Assembly: GCA_008632985.1 (NCBI GenBank) | Contig: QPGO01000234.1 | Span: 62,001 to 92,448 of the forward strand | Origin: Psammoneis japonica | Taxonomy: Eukaryota | Direction of reading: 5' to 3' | DNA length: 30,448 nt | In this document: positions 1,175-30,448 of the stretch, piece by piece | How positions within the stretch are numbered: the first letter of the stretch is position 1 | Layout: each line of letters starts with the position of its first letter | Program-made: the position numbers and the translations under genes | The notes under the pieces: generated by a model | What the model saw: only the letters and a program-made list of their open reading frames with translations | Told to the model about the DNA's origin: nothing | The model's database searches: none

Positions 1175-1568
1175 TCTATCACAGCATCTCATGTGGTTGT
1201 CAAACTTTGTAATCCCGAAACCAAACCGCCCGGAAGGTGAAATCGCTCGTCAAAACGCGCAGCGTAGGAATGTCGCGCTCAACTACCGTATGGCAGGGTT
1301 TGCTGGCAGAGTAAGAGGTGACCTGCCATGAGGTGTGGAAAAAAAGGCAGCCACTCTCTGGAGAATGCATCTAGAGAGAAATATGGTAGTGGTTCTATGT
1401 AATGGTTGTTACTGAAATAGCGAAATAGGCAGCCATACCATAATATGTACAGGGATTTTACGCAGGAGAGATGTAGCACTTTTTCTTTGGGCATTTTCTT
1501 TTCTTTCACATGTATCGGCGGTCTGTTTGAAGGTATGAACATAGTCGTTTCTGACCCCAAACTAGCCC

Positions 1569-2444
1569 TCACTCCATGTCCCCATCTTCAAGCTCATGCA
1601 TAGCTTGCTCGACTTCTGGCTTGAATTCGTGGTGGAAAAGATGGTGATTCTCTTCCTGCTGTTCGGGTTTCTTTACCTTGCCACGAACGAATGCGGTCTT
1701 TTTTCCCTTGGCGCTAACGTTTGCTGCTTCTTTCTCGTGCTTTTCGCGCTCGTGGAACAATGTGTCGACTTCGTCGTGAACAACCTTCTCGACAGCGTGC
1801 TCTACTTCCTCGACGGCATGGAGTACTTTCTTCTCTGCGTTTTCCACGGCATTAAATAGCCTGTTCTCAGCCACTTCATAGTCGTCAGGCTCGTTCTTCT
1901 TGCTCACGTTCTTTACCTTTTTGATATCATCCGATTCAGCGGCGTGCTCGTGTCTGTCTCGACAAGCGCAAAAAGTTCCACAAAATTGTGAGCGTGAGGT
2001 ATGAGATTGAATCCTTATCACAAGACGAGATCCTCGGGTATTCCACAGTAGACGGTGAACGATAAAGGACTTACTCGGAATGAATTCCCATATGGTAGGG
2101 TCCTTTCGAGCTGACGTTCTTCACCTTCTTTTGGTCCTCTTTTTCGTCTAGTTCGTGTCTGACCAAAACAAAGAGGCACAGTCTATGAGTTAGTAGCGAT
2201 AAGGCACAAAGGTCAGTCAAAAGGGACCAGTATCGGGGCGACCTCGATCCAGAGCAATCAAAGAGCTCTCATGTGTTGCCTTCGTCGTCGTGAGAAATGC
2301 CAACAATCCGGATCCAGGTCCCGAAAGAACTCACTTGTGGAGACCAAAATCGTACGGAAACAGCGAAAGGTCTGGCGCTCCATAGTATCGAGGCTCAAGA
2401 GCAGCAACGCTAGAGAGGAGGACGGCGGCAAGAATTGTCTTCAT
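1569..2444 (-). CDS. Secreted His/Glu/Lys-rich protein of unknown function, 3 exons (2444-2335, 2158-2075, 1953-1569; 192 aa)
   Basis: Signal-peptide-like start MKTILAAVLLSSVAA. Introns GTGAGT..CAG and GTAAGT..CAG join in phase (110+84+385=579 nt). KKVKNVS is repeated in exons 2 and 3. Confidence 0.8.
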
Positions 2445-3012
2445 GGTGACGGATTTTGATGTTGGTATTGTGTTGTTTGGATTGATTTTGGATTCTTTTG
2501 AGAAGCATCGCGTAGTCGCGACGAGGGTGAGAAAGAAAAGATGCCCGCATTCAAAGTACGATACTGAATTTGTGTAGAATTTTACGTACGGTAACGCGAA
2601 CCCGTGTCAGCTCTCCGCAAATCAGATGACACCGCTGTGATGGCGGGGTTCTGTCTTCAAACCGACGACGCTCCTTCTTGTGGTTGTTGACGTCACCAAG
2701 GTCGCACTGAATCTCATTCGTGGATGAAATGCGAGCCGAGAACTGGCCGAGAATGGTGTCGTTTGCTACCGCGGGCATCCCACCGGTATAGTTAGTCTCT
2801 CTATAGTCTCTAGCTAGAGAGGTAGTCCGCAAGAGAAGCTGCTCCCTGCTTCTATTCTACCGTAGCTAAGCTCTCTAGTCGAGATCGTGGAAAGATAGGC
2901 TAGCCGAAGCTGTTTTAGACACTACTTTGACTTTTTTCTTGAAAGAGCTGAATCGCGCCTTTCCTTCACTGCGATGATTATTCAAAGCGCACAAAACTCA
3001 CTACCAGTGACG

Positions 3013-3879
3013 TCAAATAACACCGACAGCATCCGTAACATCGCATGCAGCCCACCAGGTTTTGAAGTCCTCGTACGTGAGCTCTCCGTTATCGGTTTTT
3101 ACAATCTGCAAAAAAGCGGCCTCGATCTCTCTCCGATTCAAGTCCATGCCCAGACTTTGCGTTAGGTATTTGAACTCCTGTACGTTTAAAGTTCCAGAGC
3201 CGGTTGAATCTGACTCGTGAAATTTTGCAGAGAGCGTATGCTCCGAGTAAAGTTCCTTGCGGAGATCTGAGAGCTTATTGGATGCCTTACGACCAACAAC
3301 AATGTACGTGATGCCGACTATACAAAGAAACACACCCGTGCAAAGATTCAAGAGGGTTCTCTACATTCATTCAGGAAGAGAAGGTTAAGTTACGTAGGGT
3401 ACAAGAATGTCATACCAACAAGTCATAACGGAGCTCACCTGAGAAAACTGAAGGGTTCCAGCAAAGAAGTACAAACAGCCGCGTCCCCAAACGAACTTGG
3501 AAAAAAGAAAGTACTTGTTCAGGAAGTGTTCTAGTCGTTGTGGCTTGGGAACCCTTTTGCTTTCCAAAATTATAATGATAAGCCCCAAAGCAAACGTGTA
3601 AATGTTCAAAAGAGCTGAAAACAGTTGAAAAGAAAACACATTTCGCAGAAACTCAATGGAGCTTGCAACCGTCAACGTGATTCCTCCGAGGAGAGCAAGC
3701 AATCGGATCGACACATCCCCGTCACTGGCCATCTTTTTGAGCTCTTCTGCTTTTTTCTTGGCAAATGCCCCAGCTTTTTCGGCATTCTCTTTCGTCATGG
3801 CCTTTGTTGCCATACCTTGAACGGCATTGAGCCCTTGCAACCCCGAAGACAGCGGGGTGCTTTCACCCGGTTCGTTCAT
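3013..3879 (-). CDS. COPI-associated (TVP15-like) membrane protein with C-terminal EF-hand pair, 2 exons (3879-3439, 3360-3013)
   Basis: Four hydrophobic segments with the motif FLFSKFVWGRGCLYFFAGTLQ. Phase-0 intron GTGAGC..TAG. EF-hand-like loops DSTGSGTLNVQEF and KTDNGELTYEDF. Confidence 0.82.
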
Positions 3880-4290
3880 TTTCTCGAAGTTTGAAACGGC
3901 TCTCGAACTCGTGTTGAACCTTGAAAGGGGAGAAATCAAGTTCCCTCTGCGATCGATAAGACTTTGAGGGATGCCGTATCGGTAAACAACAATTGCTTAG
4001 GAGGAACAATGGGATTGACGGGAGCCGCGTTGTGACATCGTGGAGCGTGGACGGACAAGGTCATACGACTGAGATTTAGGATTCGCAGAAAATCTTGGAT
4101 CTTTTTTTGATTTTTGATCTTTTTTACTGAATCTCAGAATCGATCGAGGGACAGACGACGGAGTGAAAATCGCGCCTGCCCCCATCAATCTCAGCCCATT
4201 GCTCCAACGTCCAACAACAAATGGAAAACACAGCGGTGGCAACACATGTGACATCATCTGTGAGATAGTGAACAGCAAATGTGTTCTACA

Positions 4291-4324
4291 ACACAGCTTC
4301 AACACAAACACAGCTTCAACACAA
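4291..4324. repeat. Perfect 17-bp tandem duplication (acacagcttcaacacaa x2)
   Basis: Copies at 4291-4307 and 4308-4324. Confidence 0.9.
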
Positions 4325-7300
4325 ACTTAAACTGAAATCCCCAGGAGGCTGCACACATCAGCCACACCAGCAAGTCTGAAAAACAGCAAGGTCTCTTGCT
4401 TGCTGTGAGAGCACACAATGCTGGCAGACTCTGTTTTTGAGAAAGATTGATGGTTCCTGTCATTGTTTCATGCCAAATTGTGAGGTGAGGGCTGCTTTTT
4501 GGGGGGCTCAACATGGAGGGGGGCTCGCAGGAGGGTGTGAAGGAGCTCCCTAACCCTGAGACAAGCTGCCTTCTCTCTGACACTCTGAAGCTCTTCTTGT
4601 GTGGCAGGAGGGGCAGGAGCAAGTTGCTCCTCTCAAACAAAGGAAATGATGAGCATCTGATGTGCCACCAAGCCACAAATTCTACCAACCATGAGCAGCA
4701 GCAGAGAACAAAATTCCCCAGCAGCTTTTGCACCTCTTGGCAGCATGCAAAACCCTCAGCTGTGTTGAGGTGGCAAGAATGCATTTTCTCAAGACTGTTC
4801 TTTTGTACACCTGCCTGCATCAATTTGGAAATGTGCTCAGTTTGTGCTCTGGGCTGGTCAACCTGCTTTTTTTTTGCTGCCATTGCTGCAGCCAGTGCTG
4901 TTGTGCCACCAACGAGTGTTGCAGCTGGTGTCTTTTGCAGTGCTCTGCTCCAGAGAGTTGCTCATCTGGGAGAATTTTTTGTCTCTGAAAGCCTGCATCA
5001 GCCCACCATGACAACCACAGCTGATGCCAGCATCCCAGCTCTGAACCTGCCAGCTGGAGCAAATGGGTGGGGACAGCGAGCTCATGCTCAAGTCTCTGCA
5101 GCCCTGGTGCTCCCTGTGTCTTTTGCAAAAAGCCCAGGTGTGTCACCCTTGCTGTTCCCAGGGCTGGAGTCAATCAGCACTGGCAAAATTTTTTCCTCCC
5201 AATGACCCAAATGCTGCAGCATGAATGATGCTGGTGTGTTGTCCAAGGCAACAGCCCATCATTGCTGATGACATGCAGGAGAGTGCAGCGCAGCTCTCCA
5301 TCACAAATTTCTTCTTTGTTGTTTTACCCAAGCAAGAAGCTGTGACAAAAAGGGCTTGTTTTTTGCCTCTGCAGTCTTTCTTGCCACTTCCCTCACATTG
5401 TCATGAAGCATGTTTTGAGCACACAAAGCCATGGGTAGAAAGCTGCCAAGAACTTTGCCAACTTCCTGCTCAATCCTTGCACAGGGACCACACAATGTCC
5501 CCAGCAAGCTTCAACCATTTTCTCAACACACTGGTGTGATGGTTGATGTGTGTGCACAGTGCAACAATGCCAGCCATCATTGCAATCATGACCAACATGC
5601 CAACAGTGTAGCTTTGTGTGTGTGTTGCATCCTTGAAATTGTCCATTTCATGTGAGCACATGATGAGATGGTGTTGCAGCTGCTTGCCAAACTGATGACT
5701 TCAAATGAAGACATCATGATCTTGTGTTGGTGACAACTCACCCACTGTGGTGATGGCTGGCCATGGCCACCCAATGGAAGAAACAAAAGACAGTCTGGAT
5801 GCAAGCAGAAGATGACCTTCTCCTGGAGACTGCTTGCAAATGACAATGTGATCACAACACAGGAGTCAGCAAACTTGACTGGGGTGAAAATGCCCCTGCT
5901 GTTCAAGGCAAAGCCACCTGTGATTGTGCAGTGAGATTGAGAGAGATCCACACTGCAGGGAATTGTTTTGTTGCTGTTGATGAGGTTTGGCAGTTGCACT
6001 CCCCTTGACATGAACAACCCTGTGCTGCTTGCCGATCTTGACAATTGGGTTGCCTGCAAAGCAAAGATGTGTCATCAGAGTGCCCCAGATTTTTGATGCC
6101 ACCATCTCCAATGTGACCCTCCTCATGATCCCAGAGAACTTGTCAGCACAGCAAATGGCGCCCTTCTCAGCCATTCTGCTGCTGCCAACTCCATTGCAAC
6201 TGCAAATGACAGCTCAATCCCCATTGACAAATTTGGAGCTGCCACAAAGGCAGCAAGAGGATGCAACTGCTTGGAGTTCTTGTCCAGGCTGCACCACACA
6301 GGGACTTGACACATTGCATGTGGATGCAGAGCTTCTCACAAAGAGGCTGTGTTGGGGTGCACTGACTCAGAGCAAAAACTTCTAAAGAAACACCCTGGTC
6401 ACCAGAATTTGCTTTGCAGCATTGCATGCATGTCAAACCAAGGTCCCCTGTTTAAAAAGACCCTTGTGTTTCTGTCTTCCTGGTGCATGATCTCAAGGTG
6501 ACTGGAGATTAGACTGCACAAGGGCGCAATGCCACAAGAATTGTTTGCACATCAGCAGCTGTTTCCCAGCAAATTGGGGTGACCAATGTTGCACCAAAGG
6601 ATGCTGAGTTGGCAAGCACCTCCTCTGAAATTGATGCAGCGGTGGCAGGTCTGGCTCCAATGGTTGTGTTTGTGACTTGCTGGCACATTGTGTGCTTCAA
6701 AAAATGGAATTTCAAGTAAAATCAACATCAAACAAATGGCAACCAAGTGGCAATCCAGCAGCACTGGTGGTTTTGGTCTAAGAAAAAGACAGCAGTGCTG
6801 GTGCCTTTTTACTTTTTTCTTTGCCCCAGAAGCTGGTGTTTTCAGGATGTCTTTTGTGGGACATGGCACTTAAAACCAGGAACATGGGCACCCTTTCTTG
6901 CTTTCAAGCTTTCAAGTCATGTGACAATTGGTGTTGAAAGCAAGCTGGATTTTGAATGGCAGCTGGGAGTGGACCAGAGGAACTCAATGATTTGTCCAAC
7001 AAGCAAAAAACAAAACCCACAGGATTGTGTGGCACAGCAAGTTGCCAGAGAGAAAAGCTTTCAACACAACAATGTCTTGAATCATTTTGGATGCAAAAGA
7101 GCAGCAGTGTGACAGTTTGCTCCTTAAATTGGCTCCACAGGTTTCATTTGGCAGGCAGAAGTGCAAAACATTGATGTCCATTCACTCTGGTTGGTTTGGC
7201 AGAGCAGCTGCAACAATGGGGTGATGCCCACCTCAGTCATGACTGCATGTTGGAAGCTGCACATCACAATGCTGCCAATGAACAACATCTTGGTTGTGAC

Positions 7301-10300
7301 AAAGAAGGCAAGTTGCTGGTTGCATTGTTCACTCAGTGTCAGTTGTGCACTGAAAATTGCATGAGCCCACTCATCTCCACTTGTCATTTCTCTTTCTCAT
7401 GAGCAAATGATGACCACACAACAGATGTCAAAATCAAAAAGTGGCATTGTTGGGTTTGACTGGTGCCTGCACCTGCTTCTTGCTCATGTGGTTTGACAGC
7501 ACAGTTGGCAGCTGGTTTGTGTGGAAGGTGCAGCAGCACAAGCACCTGCAACCAAAGGTTGTCAAATCAGCACCACATGCAAGAATGACTTTTTCATGTT
7601 CTCTTAAAATCACTGCTGATGTGCAGCAAAGCCCTCCAGATCACACTCATTCTAAATCAGTTGTGCAAATCTGTCTCTGCAGAAATTCCTCCATTCTGAG
7701 TTGCACAATGTGCAACTTTCAGCAACACTCTCAATGCACATGAAGAAGGCTTGGCATGTGACTTCAGTGCAAAGCAAAGTCCGGTCTTGGTTGACTTCTT
7801 CCCACCCACTTCTCAATTTTCACTTTTCCTCTTTCACAACAAAAACCCAGCATCCCATCCATCCAACAAAACACAACGAAGTGAGGCCATGAGTTGAGTG
7901 TCCCATCCAACATGCTGTGCTGTCTGTTGCCACAAAAACAATCTTGAAACTGAGTGGTGGAGGTGAGTGCGTGGCAGTGCATGGCACAAAACTGGTGCAA
8001 ACTTGTGGCAGTTGATGCAACTCATTTTGAGCAAGGGACACATGACCTCAACAGACTTAAAAAACAGGAGTTGTGGGGAGCATGGCTCTGTGTTGTTGAA
8101 GCTGATGCACCGTGCTTGTGCTTCCACATTGTCACTTTTCACATTGTTTTGAAGATGCCACAAGGGACATCAGATGCCACCATGCAGCCCAACATGCCTT
8201 GCATCATCTGGTGCGGCATTGTCAGACTTGAAGCTGGGAGCCACAGCTCTTGAGTGTGGCTTTGCAAGGTGCAAAAATGAGCTGCACTTGCCCACCTGGT
8301 GCAAGCTGCCTCACAAAAGATCTCCAGATGACCAAACTCATGCAGAAGCAGTGCCAAGGAGCCAGCAGAAATGCCAAGAAAGTCCAGAACATCCAGAAAC
8401 TGCACAGAATTCAGTGCAGAATCAGTGCCAGGGATGTCAAATGATGATCATGAAATTTAGTGCTTTTTTTGGCATTTCTGCTGGTGCCCTGGCACAAATT
8501 TGTCACTCCGGAGTTCTTTTTTGCAGGGCAGCAAGCTCTGTTTTTCTTTCTTTCTTGTCATTCAAAAGGCAAGATGTGGGGTGCGCAAAGGTGCGTGCAC
8601 AATCCAATGTGCTGTGTTCCATTGGAGCTGATGATGTCTAACTGCCTTCTCAAAACAAGCAAAGATGGGCACACTGCAAACAGCAGAAAAGAGCCATCCT
8701 TGCCAAATTCCAATGACATGACCGCTTTTTAGCATTTTTGTCTTTTTCACTTTCTTGTCATTCAAAACAGATGCTGCATGCCTGCAAGCTCAATCAAAAA
8801 ATGCTTGAGCAATGGCTCTGTGTTTTGTGCTCATTCTGCCAACCTTGTGCTGTTTTTTTTGTGTGATTCAAGCAGGAGTCAAGAACTTTGATCTCACAAA
8901 TCATTTGAGGGCATTGGCGCCACTTTGATGCCATGGCTCAACTGACTCAGAAGGCTGCAATGGGACACCCAGAGGGCAAGCCAATGGATCTGTTGGTTGA
9001 GCCAATGAAAAAAAGAACAGCAAACAAAAGCTGTCAAAATGAGCAAATGGGAGAGCTGCAAAACAGTGGACAAAGTGGCTGTCTGGCCATTTGCTTTTGA
9101 AATGAAGTTGACAGCAGCAACAACAGTTGTTGAGAAGCTTGGCCAGTGGACTCCTTCAAATGGCCATGATTTGTCATGTCTTTCCTGCAGGATGACTTGC
9201 ATGGAACAGTCAGGTGATCTGGAAAATCAGCCTTGCATGAGAGCGCAAGCAGCTCACTTTTGTTGCATGGACACTCACAATTTTTTTGCTTGCAGGCCTT
9301 CTTCTGCCCTGGTCTGGCACACAGGGTTTTGCTGCATGGTGCTTCAGGCCCAAAACCAAGTCAGCCTTGCCTCCTCAAATGTTGATGACTTTGGTCAGGA
9401 GTTCACAAGAGCAAGAATGGAGAAAGAAGTAAAATGCAGGGTGGGGACAACAAGAACAGCACACAGCACAACATCACATGCCAACTCAAAGTGTTGCCAA
9501 AAGGCACTGCCACATGCCATGACACAAGTGGCATGCCAACCTGAAACAGACCAGAAGTTGTGTTTCACCCTCAACAGTGCTGTGGTTTGCAGCAGCCCAA
9601 GCATCATTTGATGTGATGCATGTTGGACCCATGGCAAACCTGGCTCAAAGTCTGAGGGACACAACAACAGTTCAAAGCTCAGCGGCACCACTGGAGATGT
9701 GAGCCACCCATGGAACAAATTGTCACAAGCTCTGGTTGTCCTCAAGAAGCCACGGCATTGTGAAAACTCACAACCCATTGAACAACATGTCTTCACAGAA
9801 GGCATTGTCAACTGCCATGAAATTTTCTTCCAAACGGTGGAGCATGGAAAAACAAGAGATGGCACTGCTCTCACAGCTCAATTGCTTCCACCTCTCCCAC
9901 CCTCTGTCCTTCCATCCAACTGTGGGGTTGGGAGAAGGCACCTGCAGCACTGGCAATCTGCTGCATGTAAAAAAAACAAATCCAGACATTGGGTGCTGTC
10001 ACTCCATTGCCAGCTGAGCTGACACTGGCTCACCCACACTCCCAAGGACACTTCTTCAATGCAGCAGGAGCTTGCAGGGGACTGGTGGCCAGAATGGGTG
10101 CCACCAGAAGGTGACACCCCACCAAGACAACTGAAAAGGAATGACTCACATGAGGGATTTGTTGCATGCTTGTTGATGACAGCCACAGAAGGCATGCCAC
10201 AACTGCAAAGGACAAATGCAGTCAGACAGGTTTTTAAAATGGTCCACAAAAGGAGCCTTGAAAGCAAGATGAGCAGGTCATTGGAGAAATCATTTGTTGC

Positions 10301-10301
10301 A

Positions 10302-10700
10302 CATGGAAACAGCACCAGGTCTTGCACAGAAAATCCAATGGGAGCAGCAAACAGATGACAGTCAAATGACATCACAAGATGACCTTGTGTTCTTTGCTGA
10401 AAAGGACAACAACAGAAGCAGCATGTTCACCCCAAAGAGCAAAGGACTTGATTGGATGGCAGAGAAAAGAAGTGGGGTTGAAGACAAACTGGCAAGGACA
10501 AAAGCACCAGTCTGGAGAAGTGACACATGGATTGTCAGTGGCAATGCATGGAAACAATGCCAGATCTTGCACAGAAATGCTGATGGGAGCAGCAAACAGA
10601 CAACAATCAAATGACACACTTTCACCCCAAAGAGCAAACGAAACAGCTGGCAAGGACAAAATCAGTCCGTTGAAGTGACACGCAGATTGTCAGCAGCATC
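10302..10700. repeat. Diverged tandem duplication (~10302-10546 and ~10547-10700, second copy with deletions)
   Basis: Shared blocks: catggaaaca..tcttgcacagaaa..atgggagcagcaaacaga..tcaaatgaca; ttcaccccaaagagcaaa; ctggcaaggacaaaa; gaagtgacac...gattgtcag..gca. Confidence 0.85.
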
Positions 10701-13163
10701 TGCGGATCCGTGCAGAATTTGTGCAACCTGTGTGGAAAATTTTCTGAGTCAGCAGAAAATTGCAAGAAATGAAAACCAGTGTGCAACCAAAAGGCCACAA
10801 CACCCATCATTTTCCACTGATGAACATTGCTCATCATGGTGCAACAAGGATGCACCACTGGCAAACATGGACAGAATGGGCTTTTTGGAGCCAAATTGAC
10901 ACCTTCTGAGAAGGGCAACATCAGTGCAAGAAGTTGTGTAGAAACCCACATAAAAGCTGGGGGCATGCAGCTGACATCAAAAAGCATCTGCTGCACGTCA
11001 GATTGCACCCAAGGATTGAGTGCAAAAGACAAAAGTGCTGGACTCATGTCATGCTCAACCATCTCAGATGGCACAGTGCAGTTGCTTGACATTCAAGAAA
11101 ACAGCTGTGCAGCATCTTCCCCCTCATTTTGTCTCTTCTAATTTGAGCAACAGTGCAATTGCAGTCATTGGCAATTGGTTCTAAACAAGAAACAGTGACA
11201 AACTTGTGACACCACAGAAAAGAGAACAGTGTGCTGGAGCAAGGCTGTGGCTGAGTTGTTGAAAGAGCCATGCATTGTGCACTTGCCTCAATTTGAACAT
11301 TCTGAACTTGAGCAAGTGAAGCTCACAACCCAGCATGTGAAGATGGTCATGCTGCTGAAACCAAAAAAATGTGCCATTGTTTTCATGGCACTCATGCTCC
11401 TGGCATCAAAGTGTCATTGATGGTTGAAAATCATGTTTGCAAGGTGGGGCAACCAAATTGGACTTTGTTGCTGGACCAGAGATTGTCCACAATTTTGAGG
11501 AAGTGCTGGTGCATTTGCAATGACAAAGCATGTCATCATGCTGTGAAAAATCTTTGCTGCCCCAAAAACACCCCCCTCGGTTCTGAAGTTCAGGCTCATG
11601 TGGGGCTGAGGAGAGACCTCTTGAGCCTTTCTTTGGGCCAGCTCACTCCCTGGCAACAGTCTGTGAGTCAACAAGGCCCAGAAGAAGATGGCAATGTTTC
11701 ATTGTTTTCTTTTTGATTGGCATGGGATGCACGCTTGAGCTGGATGTCTGACAGCTGTTGATGACATTGCGCAAAACATGAGAGCAACCTCACAACAAGA
11801 AATTGTTTGCATCAGATTGAAGTGAAAAAAAAAAGAGCAAGTCATCATCCAACAAGCAGTGCAAGGGCAGCCCTTCTTTTGAGAAGAAAATGAATTGAGA
11901 CAGAAGCAAATGCATTGATCTGGAAGCTGAGTGTCCCACCCATGCCAACCATGGTTGCGTGTGGAAAGAATTTGCAGTGTGGATCCAGTTGCGAGCACAA
12001 GCCACCATTGCCCCAAGCAAGACCTCTGGGCAATGGTGGTTGTGGTGACCAAAGAGGCCATGGCAGCTAACAAGGTCAAGAATGTGGCTGCATCCCCCAT
12101 TGAAGAAATGATGATGGCAGTGATGCCTGCCACTTGCAGTGCCAAAAACACTTGAAGACCTGGCAATCTGGCTGGATTGGCTCCTCCCAGTGATCAGAGC
12201 ACAGCTTTCCACCATTTTGATGACACAAGAGATGGGTGTGGATGTGATCAAGGTGGTTGTGGTCCTCACAGCAAACAGCTGCTTGCACAGGTTTGCACTC
12301 TTGAGTCTTTCCTTGGGATGCCTTCCCCCATCTTGAGGCGAGCATGCTGGCGACATGTCCTTCCAAATTGCAGCTGCAGCCTGTGATTTGATTCTGTGTG
12401 TTCTGCTCAAAAATGCAGGGCTGCTCCCTGCTGAGTTTGACAAATCTCTGAGCAAACTGAGATGGATCCATGGCACACTGGCAGAGCGTTTCATCATGCA
12501 TCATGCACGCAGCTGCTGCGATTTGACGTGTGTTGGCTCAAGAATTTCCTCTCGTGCAAGCTGGCATCAACTTGAACTTTTGACACAGCATGATGAAATG
12601 GCTCGACTTGAAAACAGTCATGAAACAATTTTGCCATTGGAAAAGAGACAGCAGAGTCAGCTGGATGTGTTGTGGACAACAGCACAAAAAGGGCAACGAA
12701 GAATGTGAAGAAGGACTTCAGCACAAGGGGAGAGAGCTGCACCTCGGATGCTGAGCATGGCAAGGTGTCTCCATCAGAAGCGCAGCAGCTTAGCATCATT
12801 TGTAAGAAGAACAAAAGGCAAAATTGCAAGCAGCATTGCCTCAACATTCTACTCCATTGTTTGATGGCAGCGCCTTGGCAAAACACTGGGCAAAAAGATT
12901 CCCAATTGCGCGCAGGCAGAGCTTGGCGTTTTAGCGCCCACTGTGCTTTCACACAAAATGCCATACTAAGTTATTACACACAACATGAATGAATATATTT
13001 AAACAAGGGCGATGATTGTCCGTTGTCCGCGCTCACATTTTGCAGTGCATGTTCTCAACGGACCCACCACCAAATAAAAAATACTCCTATGCATCGTCTC
13101 CAACACCCCTTGGTTCATTGAAAGGTATCTCTATCACTACAGCGCTCTTGAACCATTATTGTC

Positions 13164-14189
13164 ATGCCGATAAAGAGACCTAGAAGACTGAGAATATGCG
13201 TTGCTTTCATCTCTTCCGTCGCGTACACCATCTACTTTCAATACAACCTTGAACACTCTGTACTCGAAGGTTCATCGAGGAAACAACACAATGTTTATCT
13301 CGATGTCCCAGTTCATTCTTATAGTGCTCGCACATCATCCCTTCATAATACCGCAGTGAACTCAACAAGGCCTCGATATGTTCCCTTTTTTGTCGGAGGT
13401 GGCCAAGGTACAACGGGGACAAATTCTATGCACAAGGCAATGTGCGAGCTTGGAATTCCGTCTGTCCATTTCAAATCCGCTTGCTTCAAAGATGCAAAAA
13501 GTGGAAATGTTCGAAGCAAAGAAGCAGAGGAAGGTATCGAATGGCACTATCGAGTAGTAGATGACGTGATTGCATCAAAGTTGTGCTTTGTGGATCAGAA
13601 CTGTTCGTTTGCGCAAGGGATAAGAATATTGGAAAGCCTGAAATACAACGTGGCGAAGGTTGTGACCAGTGGCCTAATGGCGGTGCATGATACTCCGTAC
13701 CCGTACCTGTTGCCATACATATTGGAAGTGTTAGAAAAGGAGCAGGGAGGTAGACCGATCATTCTCTATTCCGAGAGAGACATAGACGAGTGGGTAACGA
13801 GGCGGACAACAGGTCATCCACGCCTTACTGTTTTGAGACATGACGAACATCACGCTTTTGACTACAGTTATTGGTTACGGATTTTTCAAGAAGGTGGTCC
13901 AGAAGAAAAATGTCATAATATATTTCATAGCTACGCTCAGCATCGGTCTTCCAGAGAAGCTGAGCAAGAATTTTTAGAGTACTTCAAGAAAGCTGCTACC
14001 CACCAACATGAAGCGGTTCTTGCGTTGAAACCAGACTTTCGAATCAATCTATTCATTGCCAACCCTCCATTGAACACGTCAATGTTGGCCACGGAAATAA
14101 GGAATGCGACAGCTACAAAATTTCCCTGGGAGAAATATCCTCAATTTGGAACATCTTTAGAGAATGGTAAACGAAACATGAGAAGGTAG
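13164..14189 (+). CDS. Type II membrane (Golgi-type) P-loop sulfotransferase-like protein, 341 aa, intronless
   Basis: Basic N-terminus plus one transmembrane anchor. PAPS-binding-like loop VGGGQGTTGTNSMHKAMCELG, then AVHDTP and ILYSERDIDEWVTRR, as in Sulfotransfer_4-type proteins. Confidence 0.8.
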   Translation: MPIKRPRRLRICVAFISSVAYTIYFQYNLEHSVLEGSSRKQHNVYLDVPVHSYSARTSSLHNTAVNSTRPRYVPFFVGGGQGTTGTNSMHKAMCELGIPSVHFKSACFKDAKSGNVRSKEAEEGIEWHYRVVDDVIASKLCFVDQNCSFAQGIRILESLKYNVAKVVTSGLMAVHDTPYPYLLPYILEVLEKEQGGRPIILYSERDIDEWVTRRTTGHPRLTVLRHDEHHAFDYSYWLRIFQEGGPEEKCHNIFHSYAQHRSSREAEQEFLEYFKKAATHQHEAVLALKPDFRINLFIANPPLNTSMLATEIRNATATKFPWEKYPQFGTSLENGKRNMRR

Positions 14190-17901: not shown

Positions 17902-18399
17902 GGTTCTTGCAGTTGCACGAGAGAAAGTGTGGATGATTACAACTGAAAAAGTGCGTGCGGTCATTTTTTCAAAGAGTGTGCCTGTTCGGGGAAAATTTAG
18001 GAAATTTAGAAATTTGAAGTGTATTAGGCAGACATACTGAACAATATGTTTGAATCAATTTATGTATGTTATAAATTAAGATTATTTAAGAGCATGTTAT
18101 TTTCGTATCGTGTCCGTATGACCAAGACAAAGTGAAAAAAGTTTAGCATGGAAATTTTTGTTCCGACCTCCGTCCTATGATATTTTATGCTTTTACACAC
18201 GTCATTTCTACGAGGTTGTATATAATGTAATTATGAGCAGCAGTTTGAACGGACATTGGCATTCTTTGATATATAAACTTTTGAATAAAGATAGGGTAAT
18301 GTACCGGTGTTGAATGACCTAGGGAATGACCGCTTTCGTCGTGTTCCCCCCTCATTTTTTACGTCGTTCCGGCACCCAGCACCCGCCAATAATTTGAAG

Positions 18400-19390
18400 G
18401 GTCCAATCCAATCCAATGAGCAACCACAACGACAAGCTGTCCACAGAGGTCCAGGAGACATGCGTAACAAGGTCTTTGGTCATGGCACTTTATTCAGTGC
18501 TCTGAATGTGCAAAACCAAACACTGCGTCTGGCAACCAGCAGAGGTCCTTGAAACAATGTGCAAAAAACAACAACAGCCCAAAAATCATCTTGTTTGGGT
18601 TTGTGCACAGTGTGGCAATGCCTCAAGCACCAAATTAAGAGATGGGCATTGAGCAGTTGCAAAGATTGCTGCTGTCGCTGGCAGCTGCAAACAAACTGCT
18701 TCTGAGCTGGTGCGCACCACACACCACAATGGGGCATTTTGTTGCATCATGATGTGTGTGCACACTCAATTTTCTCACAGCATGCTCTCATCATTTCATG
18801 CCATTGTGGACACCCAGTGCTGCACACAAGACAAAATGTGCCGAGGAAGAAGTTTGAGAATCACCCAAGTGCTCAACAAGCTCTTTTCTTGCTCTTGCAG
18901 CACTTGGCTTCTTTGTGCTGGTGAGAGTTGTGATGCACTGTGTGTCTGTCATGTTCATGGCACCAGCGCACACAAGACATCATGTGCGCTGTGTTTTTGA
19001 CAAAATGAAATGTGGGCCTCAGGTGTGTTGCCCTGCTGCAGCCAGGGCTCAAGCCCAATCAGCAGCACGCTGAAACCAAACCACTGAGATTGTGCAGAGC
19101 TGTCAACTTCAATCTTTTTTTTCACAAGACACGCCAATTTTTTTGTCTCAGCACAGCCAATCATTTTGTCTGCTCTCTGCTGCCCACTGCAGCTTTCTCG
19201 AGAGAGGCCAAGCTTTCATCATCTTTCATTTTTCCCTGTCAAAACCTGTGTGATTTTTTGCTTGAGGAAAGAACTTATAGAGACTCTCTCTGCTGTAGAG
19301 GGTGTGGCAGCTGGGCTAGTTGACCTTGTTGTGGAGAGAGAGCATGGACGAGGTTGGATGCTGATTGAGCAGCCAAGCAGCAGTCGCACG
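18400..19390. mobile_element. Small TpA/CpG-depleted decayed repeat island
   Basis: Same CA/TG-rich, TA-poor signature as 4.2-12.9 kb, lying between two divergent genes. No termini or domain recognised; boundaries approximate. Confidence 0.6.
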
Positions 19391-22780: not shown

Positions 22781-23561
22781 GGTGACTTAATCTTACTCGC
22801 TCGAGCCTTTTTCTCGTACTCGTCTGAAAAATAATGTGAGATGGATATCAGATATAAAATAGCAGACACACCGCGCGCGGTTTGAGTCATGCATCGGTTT
22901 TCATCGCGGCGCGTCACGACTGAGTCTCTGTTTTATTGTTTTGTTTTCGATTGTGTTCCAACATTGATTTAGCTTGCTCTCTTTTGCAGTAACGACATTT
23001 ACTGGTTGGTTGTTAGCATCTCAGCTCAGACGCGGTTTGGAATGACAACACACCGCGTTTCGATCGCAAAAGAAGTTCAAAGTTCAAAGTTCTCAGACGT
23101 GCGTCCGTCATACGTACGTAGCATGTGTCGTTTTGGCGCGTACCGGTACAGTAGGTCGCGCGACACCGGTTAACTTGCGGTTACAGGAATAACCACCGCT
23201 GATTGGGGGGCGCGCTTCCCCCTGACGTCACGGGTTAACCGCGCTAACCGGGGGGAGTCCTCAGTGGTTCCTGCCCGTAGGAGGCCGGCGCCGGAACCAC
23301 CCCCGGAACCGGTTCCCGGACCCCGGACAGGCCTGTGGTTGGTGAAGATAAGAACCTTCAGAACGCGACAAGACACAAAATCTGCTTGTCGAAATGTTGT
23401 TTCTCCCCACTCGTGTGTCAACACAATTTGAAACGACTCCACTTGTCGACCACCCCAAGTGAGCATTTGATTTCAAAAACCTCTTTTCTTTTGATGGTGA
23501 GGTGGGTGCAACCCAAAAGACGATCCCTCGAGGCCATCATGATGAGAAGAAGAGACCCAAG

Positions 23562-25159
23562 ATGGCATCTCAGGTCTCCACAGGAGACTTGTTGGCCCAA
23601 ACCATCGCACCACCCAAGGTGGATGGCACTTGTGTCACTGAGTGGAATGCATGCAAAAGGTGGGTGGACGAATCGCCGGCTCTGTCAGGGCCGCCTCACT
23701 TGACGCAAGACCAGGTCGACCGGCACTTCTTGGAGGTGGTGTTGAAACGAGACGTCACGCCAAAGTTGGCCAAGCGTGTCATTTGGTCACTGCAGCATTG
23801 TTCATCTTGGGAGGAGCACAAACCTCCCAATCCAAAATTCGTTGTGAGATCAGAGGCAGTTGACGTCACTCTGGTGGCACACAAGGAGCAATGCACCCAA
23901 AATTTGCTCACTGCGTTTGTGTCAGCTCATGACAAGCTGCCTGTGGATGCTCTGTCTTGTGTTGCTGAGGACAAGACATTGAGTTGTGTTGTTCAATCTG
24001 CTGCTTGGAAGAACTTGGCAGTGTCATGGACCAGCTGCAGCCAGACCATGATGCGAGGCGATCAGCTCTGACTTGCACGGCATGCGGACATTCACCATGA
24101 CGAAACTCACGGCCCCGGCAACCCAAACGAATTGGTCGCACGTCCAATGACAGCTCTGATTGAGCAACGGTTTGCAGGCAAACAAGGTTCCCACAAAAAG
24201 AGAGCAGCAGGCATGTGGCGGCACCGCGACTGGAAGCAATGCGGAACTGGCATGAACGCTGCCGTCGCCGCCTGCAGGTTTCATGGCGATGCGGAAATCC
24301 ACTTCGCACATCAACATGATGGATTCTCGGACTGGTGCAAGCATGAACAAGTGGGTTGGAAAACATCAGACACGCACCGCAAGGCATGCCAACGGGTGCA
24401 CAGGGCAACAAAGACGTTGTGGGCAAAGTGTGCTCACCTTGCACCGCCGGCATCGATTCCAGCAACATGGGCGGGGCGACCAAGCAAAACATTGAGCAGC
24501 AGACGAAACATGGAAAAGATTCACTTGACGTCTCATGCTCACCTGAGATCCCTCCACAAGTGCAGTTGATTGCCGCCAGGTTCTCCAAGCTGCATGGGGA
24601 GAAAGTTTGCTGCATCCCTCGCACCAACATGTCCTTCGGCGAACCAGTTCCCGGAAAACCAAATGTTGCTGACACTGAGTTGGCAGAGATGACATGGCCA
24701 AGACTGCCTGCATGGAAACAACAACACAATGTTGGTCATAAGTGGCCATGCGGTGCAAACTTTTTATGTGGGACCTTGCCTTTTTTTGCTCGCGTCCTGT
24801 GCCAAGACGGTGTCCACTGGGTCACGGAGTGTCCGCAGCACGAAGCATCCCATCTGTTGGTTCATGTTTTTGGTGGCAGATGCATTGAGTGGGCCAGGGA
24901 CAGGCTTCAAGAGATGGCTGGCATGGATGCTGCGGATGAAGATGCGATTCAAAATCTGAACATTGCTGCCCAGTCAGCATTCTCTTCGGTTCGTACCAAC
25001 ACACAGGTTCTGGTTGGGAAAATGGATCGCCTGTCAGCAGAAGTTCAAAATTTCACCAACATTGTTCTGAGGCAAAACCAGCAGCAATGACAGCAGCAAC
25101 GTGAGCAACAGGAGCAGATGCAGAGTGTCAGAATGGCTGTGAGCAGTCAGAATGCGATT
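23562..25159 (+). pseudogene. Crypton/Ndc10-type tyrosine recombinase pseudogene, N-terminal and catalytic part
   Basis: Motifs QTMMRGDQL*L (catalytic R; TGA 24069 probably from CGA), GMWRHRDWKQCGTG, KCAHL/(R)TAG (1-nt frameshift near 24441), TKH...LDVSC (expected catalytic Y read as TGC at 24536), and FFARVLCQDGVHWVTECPQH. Family assigned from recalled motifs, not from a search. Confidence 0.8.
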
Positions 25160-25274
25160 TAGACACGTGCCGCACTGGATTTGAATCTGTGGGCACAACA
25201 TCGTACGAGCGATGGTGGTGTTCGCACAACACAAATTTGTGTGCATCATGATCACAGAGCGCAAATCATAAATT

Positions 25275-26055
25275 TCAGAAAAATTCAGAAAGAACCAACA
25301 CCACACAACGCCGCTCTAGCAGCCAATGGCAAACACATCGACGACGTTGTCTGGAACTGCCGACGACTGTTTCAGGAGAGCAACTTGTCGATGTCCACAT
25401 GAGTGAAACTGGGAATGCTCTCACCCTTTTTCTTGGCATTTGGATCGGGCGTTTCACCTCAGACATGGACAGGTTCTGATCCATGTGCTTCGCACCGAGA
25501 TGCCAAGCTAGAGCCGACCAGCCCATTTGATCCAGCATCACTTTTGACCTCGGGTGCAGTTGCAAAAGCAGTTTGACCACTTTGTTGGATGCTCCACAAG
25601 TGGCTGTGCATTGCAGTGGGAGTGCTCCATGCATCGCATCATGCAAAATCACGGCACGGGGTGGAACTTGTTGAGGAATGTCTGGAAAAGGCATTTCAGG
25701 AAGTGAGAATTCAGATGCAATAAACCCTGGGGATGGGTGGACACCAGAATGTCAAAAATCTGATCAACTTCCTTGCCGGGTGGCCTCCGACATGCCCAGT
25801 GAAGAGGCAGACGTCCTTTGGAATCCGCCGCAACACAAGCAGCCTCTGGACCCAAATGACAAAGAGCTGCAATGACCAAATGTGGTGCAGAGAGGACAGC
25901 AATTCGGTGCAGCAAGTGGTTTCAACAATGTGCTGAAGGAGTCCACCCAGTGCTGCCTTTTGAAGGAGTGCATGGAACTTAGAAAGGTCGATTTGCCTCT
26001 GATGAGTTCTAGAGAAACATGAGCCTGCAGTTGTCCAGGACAATGTCTTCTTCAA
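25275..26055 (-). pseudogene. Ankyrin-repeat protein pseudogene (diatom-type 'G.LPLH.AC' repeats)
   Basis: Frameshifted pieces LGPEAACVAADSKGRLPLHWACRR, ILVSTHPQG and HDAMHGALPLQCTATCGASNKVVKLLLQLHPRSKVMLDQMGWSAL. Confidence 0.75.
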
Positions 26056-26126
26056 TTTGCTCCTGTGGCTAAATTATTTTTGACATGTGCTCAATTGTGG
26101 TGTCATCAACAAGTGTGCAAAATTAA

Positions 26127-26632
26127 GGATGGATCTACGTGCTGCGGTCTAATTTAAAATGGCTCGCATTTCCCGCACTTCACCGTGTTGTTTGGACCTG
26201 CCTCGGAACACCCCCGAACACTCATGCATTCGTCAAACCCTCATGCCGGCGGGGGCTGTTAGACGGCTATAAGAGCTGCACATTCAGTGCTTCAAATGCC
26301 ACTTGTCGACCCATGCCCTCTTGTCAGGTCGAAAAAACCGCCAATTTTCGCTAAAATCGGGCTTCTTGTGGGAGATTGGTGGTGACTTTCCGGGAAATGC
26401 AGACAAGTGGCATTTGACTGGCTGTGGACTTATCTGCAGTCGTTGTGGTAAAAGTCGTGCATGGTCACACCTGTCGTTCAAGCATTCCAGGGTGTCTGGC
26501 GAACGGACAAAGTTCGACCGATCGCTGAAATTTTTTTTTGCGAACGCGCGCGCATTCACTACGATGCATCCGGGTCATTTTTATAAAAATTATGAGCTCC
26601 CAAAAAACAGACCGCAGCACGTAGATCCATCC
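26127..26632. mobile_element. 506-bp non-autonomous DNA transposon (MITE) with 24-bp perfect TIRs and TTAA target-site duplication; Kolobok-like
   Basis: ttaa-GGATGGATCTACGTGCTGCGGTCT (26127-26150) ... AGACCGCAGCACGTAGATCCATCC (26609-26632)-ttaa. A TTAA TSD with RR..YY termini fits Kolobok rather than piggyBac (CC..GG). Confidence 0.9.
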
Positions 26633-26636
26633 TTAA

Positions 26637-27957
26637 GAGGGCGGTCCAGAGATCGCCTGGCACACTTTTTACACAGAAACTGCCAGAGAGCCAATCACGT
26701 GCATTCCTGCACAGACGCAGCACAAAACAGAAAGCATGGCACTCCATCACGCGACCTCACGACGACACCACCTGACGACAACGCATCAAAATGGCGTCGT
26801 CCGCATCTTTCTGCAGCTCCTCTTTCACTTGCCCGATTGCTCCAAAAGGGCCAGGGGAAGCTGACAAGCTTTCTCTTGCAACACAGCAATGCAAACAAAA
26901 GTTGTTTTTTGTTCCAAAATCTCAGAATGCAGTGCAACCGATTGTCAAGGCGAACTCGCACGTTGGTGGCAACAACACCAGTCAATGTTCACTCTAGAAC
27001 AACAATGGAGACGTGATGCCCCAACAAAATAAAGTCCATGCCCCCATGACAAATTTTAAAGCTAGTTCTTCTTGTTGGCATGCAATCTTTAGCTGCTTTT
27101 TAGACTTGACAAAATGATCATCTGCCCCGGCTGTCACCCTCTGAGTTTGTTGCATTGGCCAACAAATTGGGCAAGCAAGCCACACATTTCTAGCTTGCAA
27201 ACTGCCTTGCAGCCAAAAGAAGCAATCTAAACCTTCAGAACAGCCATGATGCACTGGTCTGCCGAATCAAACTCCGCATCACCAAGTGGAGGCGGGGAGA
27301 ACCATTGTCAAAAATGCACTGTGACGGATCTGAGCTCTTGAGAGCTTGTCCAGCTTTTGACACCATGGCCCCAAATCACCACATTTGTCATGAAGTCAGC
27401 CTGATGCTGTGTCTGTGACTTTGCCTTGTTTTGGAAATGCCGCGGCCATCACATTGCAGAATTGACATTCTTGACAAGGAAAAGTGTTTCTGGGACACCT
27501 TGCGATGACGGAGACCCTGCAGAACAAAAGAACAATGTAGAAAGAGACAACACATGTAAGTCAAACGGGTGTCAATGTATGAAGCCTCAACAAAACACAC
27601 AGCATGAATGGTGGTGCACAAGGTTGGTCGTGATGCAACAGAAGCGACGCTGTCAACGCGAACCTTCAGTGAGAATTTTCACCATCAGCCACCCATGTGA
27701 ACCTGTGTGCTCTCGAGCTTGTCACATGCCTTGTGCTGTGACGCAAGACATTCCGTTGAGAGTACACTACAAAGCACCTCAGAAACAACCGCATTTTTGA
27801 AATCGGCGAAATGCCATTGTCCGTGTCATTTTGCGTCGCGAGCCAGAAAACACTCCCAAAAACTGTTCTGCAGGGCAAAATGCACTGAATCTACACAGAT
27901 TTGGGTTGTGCCAGGCCACGTAGAAAATGAACGGGCCGAGAACTGTGGTGCGCCCAC
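26637..27957. mobile_element. 1.32-kb TTAA-flanked element with imperfect TIRs, decayed
   Basis: Left end GAGGGCGGTCCAGAGATC versus reverse-complemented right end GTGGGCGCACCACAGTTC (13/18). Both ends carry subterminal GCCTGGCACA. TTAA at 26633-26636 and 27958-27961. Confidence 0.65.
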
Positions 27958-28199
27958 TTAATTTAGCCACTGACATGCAGTTTTCAAGAACTGGGCCGCA
28001 TCTGCTCTTTGCCATCGTCGTTTTGTCGGGTGTCTCGTGTTTCAGCGCGTGCGGAAGTGGGCCAAAACAATCAGTCGAACTAGTCAAGTGTCTTGCGAAC
28101 ACCAAATTTATCAATTCTTTCAAATCTGCACAAAATTGATTGCGGAATGGTTTCTGCGGGATGTTGTGCCCATGGAATCCAACTCGCGCGCGCATCGTT

Positions 28200-28613
28200 C
28201 AGCATCTGCCTCCGCCGCCGTCAGGTGCTGCTCAACCACACTTTCCAAAAGAAATGCCAAAGACAATGACCAAAATGTTGGAGGAGCACCTGGAGTTTCA
28301 GTTGGAACAGTGCAAAGGAGTGAGCAAAAAGAATTGGCAGGGTGGGGTCACCATGCAGCTCAGTCGTCGTTCTCACCTGTGTGGCTTAATTCTGAAACGG
28401 TCTGAGCGAGTGCGTGGTTTTTCAGACCGTGCCGCTGTGCTCCAGGAATCTGCAAGGCTGATTGATGAGGAGAGAGATGCCATGTCACTCAGACAATTGC
28501 ATGACATTTCCAAGGCTCAACCCAGTGATGCCAAGTGCCGCAAGGTCGACCGCTCCCAAGGACCGAAGAAAAGATCGCGTCGCACCCAACCTCTCCCATC
28601 GGAAGATGTGTGA
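28200..28613 (+). pseudogene. C-terminal (GCR1_C-like DNA-binding) part of the Crypton recombinase
   Basis: PHFPKEMPKTMTKMLEEHLEFQLEQCKGVSKKNW..LSRRSHLCGLILKR..ARLIDEERDAMSLRQLH follows the GCR1_C-like pattern and is in frame with the 25157 junction. Confidence 0.68.
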
Positions 28614-28699
28614 GGTTGAAGGAGGTCGAGCGTTTTTTGTGTTTTTGTAACTCTGTGGCCCCTGCATTTTTTGTTTTCAATTTTTCCAATCCTCCTGTG

Positions 28700-30448
28700 T
28701 AGACCCCCAGTGAAAAGTGTGCCAGAAGAAAGGCCAAAAGCCGGTCAAGCCGCTGCTTTTGTTGTCTCACAACATTTGACGTCGCGTCATCGGATCACTT
28801 GGGTGTCAGGGGTCACGTGAAACAATCGGACATTTGTTGATCGTGAATGAAAAGTCCTCAACAAATGTTCTTTTGTCGTCTCTGATTGATTGATGTCCGG
28901 CTTTTAAGCAAAAAGAGCCCACGCAGGCTTTGGCACTGCTGTGCGCGGCAACCGGCACTCACCGAGGCCCCAACCCCCAGGCTCCGGAGAGCCTGGTCTA
29001 CATGAGATCAAGAGCACAGGATGGTGGCGAGAGCGACCCGCCGCATGCCTGCATGAATGGGTGCTGCAACTGTGCTTCTATTTGTCGCGCGTGTCGAGTC
29101 ACGTCGGCCTTCAGATGCGCTTTCAATTTTAAGGGCGGTCATCCCCGCGTTTGTCCCAGAGAATTGCCGTGGCATTTGAGTGAGGACATTTGCAGTGTTT
29201 GTTTTTGAATGCAAAAATTGCAGCATTTGCATTCACCCCCGATCGCGCATGAAAACGAGAACACTCAGGCACCGTGATCGAAGCACGACGATGACGGCAA
29301 TGTCGGCATGGCTCCAAAACGCAGTGGTCCGTCCACAAACATTTGATGTGCATGTGACCTTTGATGCACAACGAACATAAAATGGGTGAGAGTTGGCAGA
29401 CGGACCACCTCCGCCACTGACTTGCACTGCATTGTGGCTTGATGTTTTCACCACGGTGAAGCACGGTGGTGTGAAGTTCAAGAAAAATCACGCAAATCAC
29501 GAGCTGTTCAGTTGAACTCAAGCTAAAAAAGCAGCAAATGACCCCCCTTGATTCAGCTCCTGAAAAGTCGTCAGCTTTGATCACTCTCTCGTGTGACATT
29601 GTGCGCACATTTCCACACGATCATTTTGTGTTTTTCCTTGTGCAAAATGTCAGTTGTGGCTGATGCAACATTTTCGAATGATTCCCATCATGACAAAAAC
29701 AGCAGCTCCATTGTCAGTGCACACAACAATGGCCCTTGCTTGCTCCTCTCATGTCTCTTTCCTGCTGCTGTTGTCCCATTCACACTGCATGGACTTGCTC
29801 CCTCCTCAGAAGCTCGTCAGGAGGTGCGCACAATGGCTCTTCAACTTTCCACAAAAATCTGAGTTCTTGAACTTTTGCAAAGATTGACAGACTGCAGCTC
29901 ATGCAGCAGAGAAGCTTGCATGCTCATCGGTCATGCTGACTCAGCCAGGTTGATGCCAAAGATGCATGGCATGAACCCTGCACCATGCATCTCTGAGACA
30001 TGTCACCTTTTGTTCCAAAAAAAAGTGACGAGCAATGTGCTCTTCCCTCACCATCATCACAGTGTTGTCACACTGAAAAGAAGAAATGCAAGACATTGTG
30101 GTTTGGTTCCAAAGCTCACATCTTGCCTCTCTCATCCTCCCTGGATTGGTTGCCAGCAAAAAAGTCTGCACTTGCAAGCTGCAGGCTCTCTCCAATGCTG
30201 AAATCCCACCTGCAGATGACCCGCCGTGCCTGTCAATGAATCCTTTGCCAGTCTCCTGAGCTGCTTTAAGAAAGTCAATCTCCTTGAAGGCATCTCAGGA
30301 GGCAAGGTGACTGGCTTTGATGGGATGGGCTTTGGAGACCAGAGCTCAATCTTTGTGTTGTCTCCTTTGACCACCAACATTCAAACTTCTTCCTTTCTTG
30401 ATGCATTTCAGCCCTGGGCAGGAGCTTGCAGCACTGACATGAGACACA
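28700..30448. mobile_element. Continuation of TpA-depleted decayed repeat DNA, unidentified, running off the window
   Basis: TpA is nearly absent. CpG is retained to ~29.5 kb and becomes sparse afterwards. Confidence 0.55.

Follow-up and report, generated by a model that had tools for sequence, protein, structure and literature searches.

A probable in-place TpA-to-TpG/CpA transition process with a graded flank preference in islands of a Psammoneis japonica contig

Hypermutation of foreign DNA at TpA steps was reported only in 2026, in a preprint on Bigelowiella natans whose main text underlies what is said of it here (Mettrop et al., bioRxiv 10.64898/2026.01.13.699255). In mutation-accumulation lines, 231 of 302 new mutations fell in two viral inserts, and 230 of these 231 were A-to-G or T-to-C changes, all on TpA according to the text (10.64898/2026.01.13.699255). 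The genome of B. natans carries 124 TpA-poor clusters rich in CpA and TpG, defined as runs of three or more adjoining 1-kb windows whose Rho_TpA does not exceed 0.43 and whose Rho_CpA+TpG reaches 1.52 or more, and an ADAT2-like deaminase was proposed as the agent (10.64898/2026.01.13.699255). Here, we describe a 30,448-nucleotide stretch of contig QPGO01000234.1 of Psammoneis japonica (the window), which contains a long TpA-depleted island (D1), a mini-island (D2) and a further depleted zone (D3; Table 1). TpA-to-TpG/CpA transitions as in B. natans have probably brought D1 close to saturation, acting on both strands in place with a graded preference for T-A-pyrimidine (TAY), and a second process would have converted CpG to TpG/CpA in the core of the island.

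In D1, the observed/expected ratio (o/e) of TpA is 0.03-0.17 across nine consecutive 1-kb bins (4001-13000), compared with a normal level of ~0.5-0.7; the flanks of D1 show ~0.55-0.58 for TA and 0.86-1.00 for CG. Counts over 4200-12950 are 35 TA (o/e 0.06), 51 CG (0.10), 1035 CA (1.79) and 991 TG (1.94), and the remaining twelve dinucleotides stay at o/e 0.81-1.37, with GC at the top (1.37). Among the steps ending in A only TA is depleted (AA 1.23, CA 1.79, GA 0.92). We know of no genome signature with a TA o/e of 0.06. The 13.5 kb of undepleted DNA in the same window (576 TA) served as background throughout. Per kb, the D1 core (4240-12340) has lost 37.9 TA and 49.0 CG, together 86.9, and gained 92.8 TG+CA; D3 (23300-30446) has lost 33.3 TA and 12.2 CG, together 45.6, and gained 56.4. 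The TpA and CpG deficits thus reappear as TpG/CpA, which argues for conversion in place. D3 is patchy, with TA o/e rising to 0.35-0.44 at 26001-26750, 27001-27250 and 27751-28000, and it continues past the end of the window.

These islands resemble the hypermutated DNA of B. natans, in which TpA-to-TpG/CpA transitions alone, on both strands, have produced kb-scale clusters that are mostly unannotated, and in which a single-copy insert from a nucleocytoplasmic large DNA virus is affected. They fall within the cluster thresholds of the preprint, CA+TG lying at o/e 1.52-2.42 in every 250-bp bin of 4251-12750. Ongoing A-to-G/T-to-C change at TpA, by which the preprint also recognizes the process, is visible here in the mass balance and in seven TA-linked differences from a second DNA run, described below. 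Nuclear coding sequences of B. natans have TA and CA+TG shares of 4.1% and 13.7%, compared with 4.2% and 14.0% in our background. The words 'trinucleotide', 'context', 'flanking' and 'CpG' are absent from the main text of the preprint, Figure 2B and the supplements lying outside this scope, and no other report of TpA hypermutation of DNA was among the matches listed in a literature search. The TpA process has therefore already been described; the flank rule and the co-decay of CpG are not in print as far as these sources extend. The original prediction for this stretch, made from its letters alone, mentioned neither the CpG loss in D1 nor the B. natans precedent.

The sharp edges of the islands and their orphan open reading frames (ORFs) would also fit an import from a donor natively devoid of TA and CG, or selection against these steps. 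However, the losses match the gains of TG+CA, in two lineages the remaining TA and CG continue to undergo different conversions, and the three zones differ in degree and in the involvement of CpG. Import or selection is accordingly an extremely improbable explanation.

Table 1. Coordinates of the depleted zones and of single sites and segments within them (positions in the window).
Feature	Position	Strand	Remarks
D1, TpA-depleted island	4130..12960	none	Edges from TA position list and sequence
D1 core, CpG-depleted	4240..12340	none	34 CG, ~4/kb versus 53/kb in background
D1b	12341-12950	none	TA-poor, part of CpG retained
GTAC, sole RTAY survivor of D1	4805..4808	none	T at 4806
Double-hit site	9523..9524		Window CA, DNA run X1 TG
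High-copy A-rich segment within D1	10006..11339		Summed contig depth ~1090-1930 versus ~60 elsewhere
D2, mini-island (0.8 kb)	18470..19275		2 TA, CG ~12/kb, CA+TG o/e 1.7-2.2
D3	23280..30448		60 TA, TA o/e 0.13, CpG o/e 0.65, CA 1.52, TG 1.63

The TA steps that persist in D1 are strongly biased in their flanks. Writing Y for a pyrimidine and R for a purine, 20 of the 35 are YTAR (CTAA 8, TTAA 7, TTAG 5), 14 are mixed and one is RTAY, versus 90, 311 and 175 of the 576 in the background (chi2 41.5, p=1e-9; Fisher's test, p=8e-8 for YTAR and p=1.5e-4 for RTAY). The original prediction had counted ~34 TpA by eye, ~19 of them YTAR and a single one RTAY (GTAC near 4805), and was close to exact; the six positions it gave as examples of YTAR (4328, 6383, 6453, 7125, 8058, 11139) all have this context. 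D3, with 27 YTAR, 29 mixed and 4 RTAY among its 60 TA (23300-30446; p=1e-8 versus background), provides an independent replicate because it lay outside the original observation. The share of YTAR in the background is alike within long ORFs (45/312) and outside them (44/252). The contrast is stark between TTAA and ATAT (17:0 in survivors versus 21:39 in background, p=6e-7), and the Y/R shorthand is carried mainly by A/T flanks.

A simpler account would dispense with any context preference and attribute the YTAR excess to base composition, to poly-A/T runs or to TA re-created from CA/TG. Survivors are indeed A-rich at positions +1 to +3 (the share of A among their half-sites is 43/52/39% at +1/+2/+3, versus 22/26/27% in background), many sit in T-run/A-run settings, and re-creation could account for a few of the RTAY or TAT survivors. 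Nevertheless, a mononucleotide null is rejected in both D1 (p=1.6e-5) and D3 (p=1.4e-4), and the density of AAA/TTT in D1 is only ~20% above background. The bias also persists, with all three depleted zones pooled, when TA steps touching runs of A or T are removed. Survivors then divide into YTAR, mixed and RTAY as 34/32/5 versus 81/284/172 in background for runs of at least 4 (p=1.5e-11), as 22/27/5 versus 58/249/172 for runs of at least 3 (p=1e-8) and as 7/18/5 versus 24/144/172 for runs of at least 2 (p=1.7e-4), so that the predicted bias beyond composition and runs holds under every filter. If TA had been remade by C-to-T or G-to-A changes in CA or TG, it would share the flanks that CA/TG have within the islands; this null predicts 22-23% YTAR-type and 23-27% RTAY-type sites (7.8/19.1/8.1 YTAR/mixed/RTAY for D1) and is rejected in its turn (p=1.7e-6 in D1, 1.9e-5 in D3). 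The TA steps present today are true survivors, not back-mutations. As the mutational products, treated below, independently show the same asymmetry, an absence of context preference is very improbable.

The strength of the preference was estimated by modelling TA survival as exp(-(k1+k2)), with one k for the half-site on each strand, ancestral tetramers at background density and 97 survivors. The loss kt is 1.78 for half-sites with Y at +1 and 0.41 for those with R (likelihood-ratio test 75.6, p=3e-18), the corresponding pairs being 2.18 versus 0.52 in D1 and 1.48 versus 0.27 in D3. Resolved by base, kt at +1 is 2.06 for T, 1.59 for C, 0.64 for G and 0.22 for A, approximately a fourfold advantage of Y over R; the value for T is 3.56 in D1 and 1.54 in D3. 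Adding a term for A at +2 improves the model (p=1e-7), in which TAAA and TAGA show no measurable loss and TAG followed by a base other than A reaches a kt of 1.21. Half-site survival indices are highest for TAAA (0.42), TAAG (0.41) and TAGA (0.40) and lowest for TAGG (0.015), TATC (0.039) and TATT (0.045). The data support a flank preference that is graded, not exclusive, and a footprint longer than the tetramer. In the changed A:T pair, the A would thus be flanked 5′ by T and 3′ preferably by a pyrimidine (in the order T, C, G, A at +1), with further protection by A at +2 and less by A at +3. Under such a rule YTAR would be the slowest context to decay, above all where TA joins a T-run to an A-run, and RTAY the fastest, above all ATAT. 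The T-A-pyrimidine target originally proposed therefore stands as a tendency, backed by survivors, products and lineage differences; as a strict motif it does not, since the preference is graded, TAG before a base other than A decays as well, and positions +2 and +3 matter.

Survivor counts cannot separate a pyrimidine 3′ of A from a purine 5′ of T because these are the same statement on opposite strands. The products of mixed sites (YTAY and its complement RTAR) distinguish the two half-sites: YTGY or RCAR results when the A before Y is hit, and YCAY or RTGR when the A before R is hit. The ratio of the first to the second kind is 468:453 in the background, 625:403 in the D1 core (Fisher's test against background, p=1e-5), 48:21 in D1b (p=0.003), 62:31 in D2 (p=0.004) and 397:305 in D3 (p=0.02). 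The product of a hit at TAY is thus in excess over that of a hit at TAR in four of four zones; D3, a zone little disturbed by CpG decay, has excesses of ~149 and ~65, respectively. This asymmetry implies that it is the base adjoining the mutated pair that matters, not the base beyond the T. The gain of TGN per background TAN is 1.27 for C, 0.56 for T, 0.52 for G and 0.23 for A; the figure for T rises to 0.94, as worked out from the TGNN rows, when TGTA is left out because it is itself destroyed.

Both strands are used equally. TG accounts for a share of 0.49 in the islands, TG and CA are intermixed with an autocorrelation within noise, and a search of the islands for strand-coordinated clusters of TG or CA found none. 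This pattern agrees with numerous independent hits on the two DNA strands and speaks against one edited transcript copied back. ADARs show a graded 5′ preference (U>A>C>G) and prefer G at +1. A retroelement transcript that underwent ADAR-like A-to-I hyper-editing before being reverse-transcribed and integrated could be invoked here inasmuch as a U before the edited A is favoured by these enzymes (10.64898/2026.01.13.699255, main text). However, a single edited transcript would yield TA-to-TG on one strand, in contrast to the 1035 CA and 991 TG intermixed in D1; TAG is relatively spared and AA is not lost. Moreover, no reverse transcriptase or other Pfam domain was found in the ORFs tested (25 in D1, 19 in D3), most of D1 is near single-copy depth, and changes continue in place in two lineages. 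The likelihood of such an origin is close to negligible.

A DNA run of the same organism (X1; contig depth ~60), with contigs that span the islands and their edges, differs from the window mostly within the islands, where the changes are transitions affecting CG or TA steps. Seven differences in D1 are linked to TA (5609, 6474, 6611, 6706, 9523, 9524, 9726). At 9523-9524 the two lineages carry CA and TG, respectively, and the implied ancestral A-TA-C would have been hit on opposite strands, each time at a TAY half-site. With TA taken as ancestral, five events fall on 21 TAY half-sites and two on 59 TAR half-sites (p=0.012). Around 13 more island differences oppose CG to TG/CA, and the TpA and CpG processes both appear to be still running. 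D2, situated between an M6-metalloprotease-like gene and the next gene, has seven differences from X1 in its 0.8 kb. Elsewhere, the first 1.1 kb has five differences (195-950), of which four are transversions and the fifth is G-to-A, unlike the transition-dominated islands; these may be assembly errors or another kind of variation.

CpG density falls to ~4/kb at 4240-12340 and ~12/kb at 18500-19260, versus 53/kb in background, and ~90% of the expected CpG has been lost to TpG/CpA in the D1 core and ~78% in D2. The CpG-poor core (~4240-12340) is narrower than the TA-poor zone (~4130-12960), and D3 retains most of its CpG; owing to these unequal extents the two losses are separable. The 58 CpG that survive in the CpG-poor zones have a flank bias of their own (28 RCGY, 22 mixed and 8 YCGR versus 163, 388 and 167 in background, p=7e-5). 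GCG half-sites are spared, with a survival index of 0.23 versus 0.07-0.09 for the others, and GCGC is the commonest survivor. CpG decay looks like a second, separable process in the island core. It resembles methylation-linked decay in that CpG is lost to TpG/CpA in the D1 core and D2 and that CpG changes are frequent among the lineage differences, and departs from it in the lesser width of the CpG-poor zone relative to the TA-poor zone, the small CpG loss in D3 and the bias of the surviving CpG to GCG half-sites. The co-location of the two kinds of decay suggests that the inserts are also cytosine-methylated or cytosine-deaminated.

The sharing of one island by CpG and TpA loss might instead point to error-prone patch repair by a Pol-eta-like polymerase, perhaps triggered by deamination of CpG cytosines. 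Pol eta prefers WA motifs (TA and AA), so that TA is among its targets, and mixes in transversions. Yet AA shows no depletion (o/e 1.23-1.26 within the islands versus 1.10-1.25 outside), the mass balance leaves scant room for transversions, and TA has been lost from D3 and 12341-12950 without CpG being lost to a similar degree. In the viral regions of B. natans, according to the main text of the preprint, only 1 of 231 new mutations was other than A-to-G or T-to-C, so that C-to-T numbered at most one. We consider patch repair of this type a highly improbable cause.

The chances are about even, in our judgement, that the agent behind the TpA-to-TpG/CpA transitions is a polynucleotide adenine deaminase acting on DNA and reading ~4-5 nucleotides around the target A; we infer this chemistry, and also a marking of the DNA as silent or foreign. 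The known relatives, as described in the portions of two articles consulted, offer partial likenesses. Deaminases of the TadA/ADAT2-ADAT3 type contact both 5′ and 3′ flanking bases, and BjADAT2 of amphioxus deaminates A and C in DNA, with a preference in Escherichia coli for GAA in the case of A and TCG in the case of C (PMC10354150). The GAA context is unlike that of the islands. The class also includes the TadA variants of adenine base editors (ABE); literature searches for a YAC preference of these gave no relevant match. Bacterial TadA editing sites carry UACG, and fungal ADAT-type editing of mRNA shows U at -1 with A/G enriched at +1 (PMC10027721), a +1 preference opposite to the one seen here. 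The likeness to TadA put forward in the original prediction is weak overall. It is sound as regards the T (or U) directly 5′ of the target A. At +1 the picture is mixed, C being favoured (kt 1.59) and T at least as much. The likeness fails at +2: G is not favoured there, and TACG is lost no more than TACC or TACT (survival index 0.071 versus 0.048 and 0.049), a comparison that separate CpG decay may confound. The idea that the flanks could serve as a fingerprint discriminating between mechanisms has proved useful, as they speak against ADAR-like, fungal-ADAT-like and Pol-eta-like signatures. This fingerprint matches no characterized enzyme exactly, and our best guess remains an adenine deaminase with recognition of T at -1 and of several bases on the 3′ side.

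All these results would fit, by symmetry, a T-to-C change at RTA produced by an activity that modifies T in R-T-A. Oxidation by a TET/JBP-like enzyme to 5-hydroxymethyl- or 5-formyl-uracil, which mispair with G, is an example of such thymine chemistry, and the restriction to transitions suits it. Nothing here or in the main text of the B. natans preprint, however, points to a modification of thymine, whereas adenine deamination in DNA has a direct precedent in BjADAT2 (PMC10354150, as far as consulted) and the preprint names an ADAT2-like candidate. A thymine-based process is thus unlikely, though less so than the other alternatives weighed above. It is tempting to imagine that a single DNA deaminase active on adenine as well as on cytosine, similar to amphioxus ADAT2 and aimed at silent foreign DNA, would write both footprints. 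It would obey a T-A-Y(-not A) rule in turning TpA into TpG, and would spare GCG in turning CpG into TpG; TpA loss would be the early and CpG loss the late stage, the 4-5-nucleotide footprint would be a relic of anticodon-loop recognition, and the whole would represent a single eukaryotic DNA-editing defence. This extended scenario is speculative and doubtful.

Several observations weigh against a TAY-preferring adenine process as formulated above. Taken alone, the contrast between G/C flanks is not significant (CTAG versus GTAC 7:4, background 24:47, p=0.09). The TAY-half share in D3, with CpG-derived products allowed for, is 63-74% as compared with the ~85% predicted by the survivor rates, which is the same direction but weaker. 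Two of the seven lineage differences lie at TAG, one of them in TAGA, which is nearly immune in the model; the direction of the X1 differences is assumed at five sites, the double hit being the exception, and the numbers are small. The ancestor is proxied by the tetramers of 13.5 kb of neighbouring, largely genic DNA, and every rate depends on this proxy. The survivors number only 97 and all come from one window. Finally, A-to-G at TAY and T-to-C at RTA are indistinguishable by sequence.

Any enzyme proposed as the agent can be tested concretely against the flank rule, which its activity on oligonucleotides should reproduce. At +1, T and C rank ahead of G and G ahead of A, A at +2 is protective, and the strands are used equally without strand clustering. 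A strict UACG specificity, as described for TadA in the portion of the literature consulted, is not what the island shows. The TA steps expected to persist in an old insert also follow from the rule, which helps to date and find such islands.

Basidiomycete transposons undergo TCG-type hypermutation, in which dinucleotide-specific transitions likewise leave kb-scale islands. Fungal repeat-induced point mutation, in the accounts consulted in part, converts C to T at CpA, makes TpA and requires duplicated sequence. The islands resemble its results in that unwanted DNA is disabled by transition hypermutation at specific dinucleotides, with compositional islands on the kb scale left behind. In contrast, TpA is here destroyed and CpA/TpG created, in DNA mostly near single-copy depth and without hidden repeats. 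Most of D1 has the depth of its flanks, only 10006-11339 being high-copy in the X1 contigs. A self-comparison in purine/pyrimidine coding, which is transition-proof, revealed no hidden repeats joining the islands, so that duplication is not the trigger, and an ordinary repeat search found local repeats only. The high-copy segment, possibly a dispersed repeat or a minisatellite, has internal 70-nucleotide repeats at 10302-10371 and 10547-10616 and many joins and loose ends in the X1 contigs.

Pfam searches produced only sub-threshold matches for the 25 ORFs of D1, including one to a Clostridium enterotoxin family (E 0.017, 15 bits versus a 25-bit cut-off) that we judged to be noise, and nothing useful for the 19 ORFs of D3. 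Two ORFs of D3 had no match, the first (23908-24735) among 5.8 billion proteins and the second (26273-27016) among 1.84 billion representatives. Searches of the islands for tRNA and Rfam families found none.

The flanks carry spliced genes of eukaryotic type, encoding two proteins, one COPI-associated and the other M6-metalloprotease-like; a flanking gene has 55% identity to its best homologue, and an atlas search gave only ankyrin-like matches judged to be noise. In another run, X2, the flanking genes have spliced joins, and no contig lies over 4003-13340 or 18010-19343, an absence of cover that is no evidence either way. At 1376-3962 this run is RNA-like: its contigs skip 1954-2074, 2159-2334 and 3361-3438, all with CT..AC ends (GT..AG on the minus strand), which defines the introns of two minus-strand genes, one with a depth of ~740. 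Tandem units of 160-245 nucleotides with 66-87% identity extend over 14488-15560, across the minus-strand ORFs 14485-14913, 14916-15347 and 15350-16609; these have no Pfam match and may belong to a repeat-domain gene family. Further along, a 10.8-kb X1 contig aligns to 15674-17852 with ~16-18% differences and implies that the region of the M6-metalloprotease-like gene has a diverged paralogue elsewhere in the genome.

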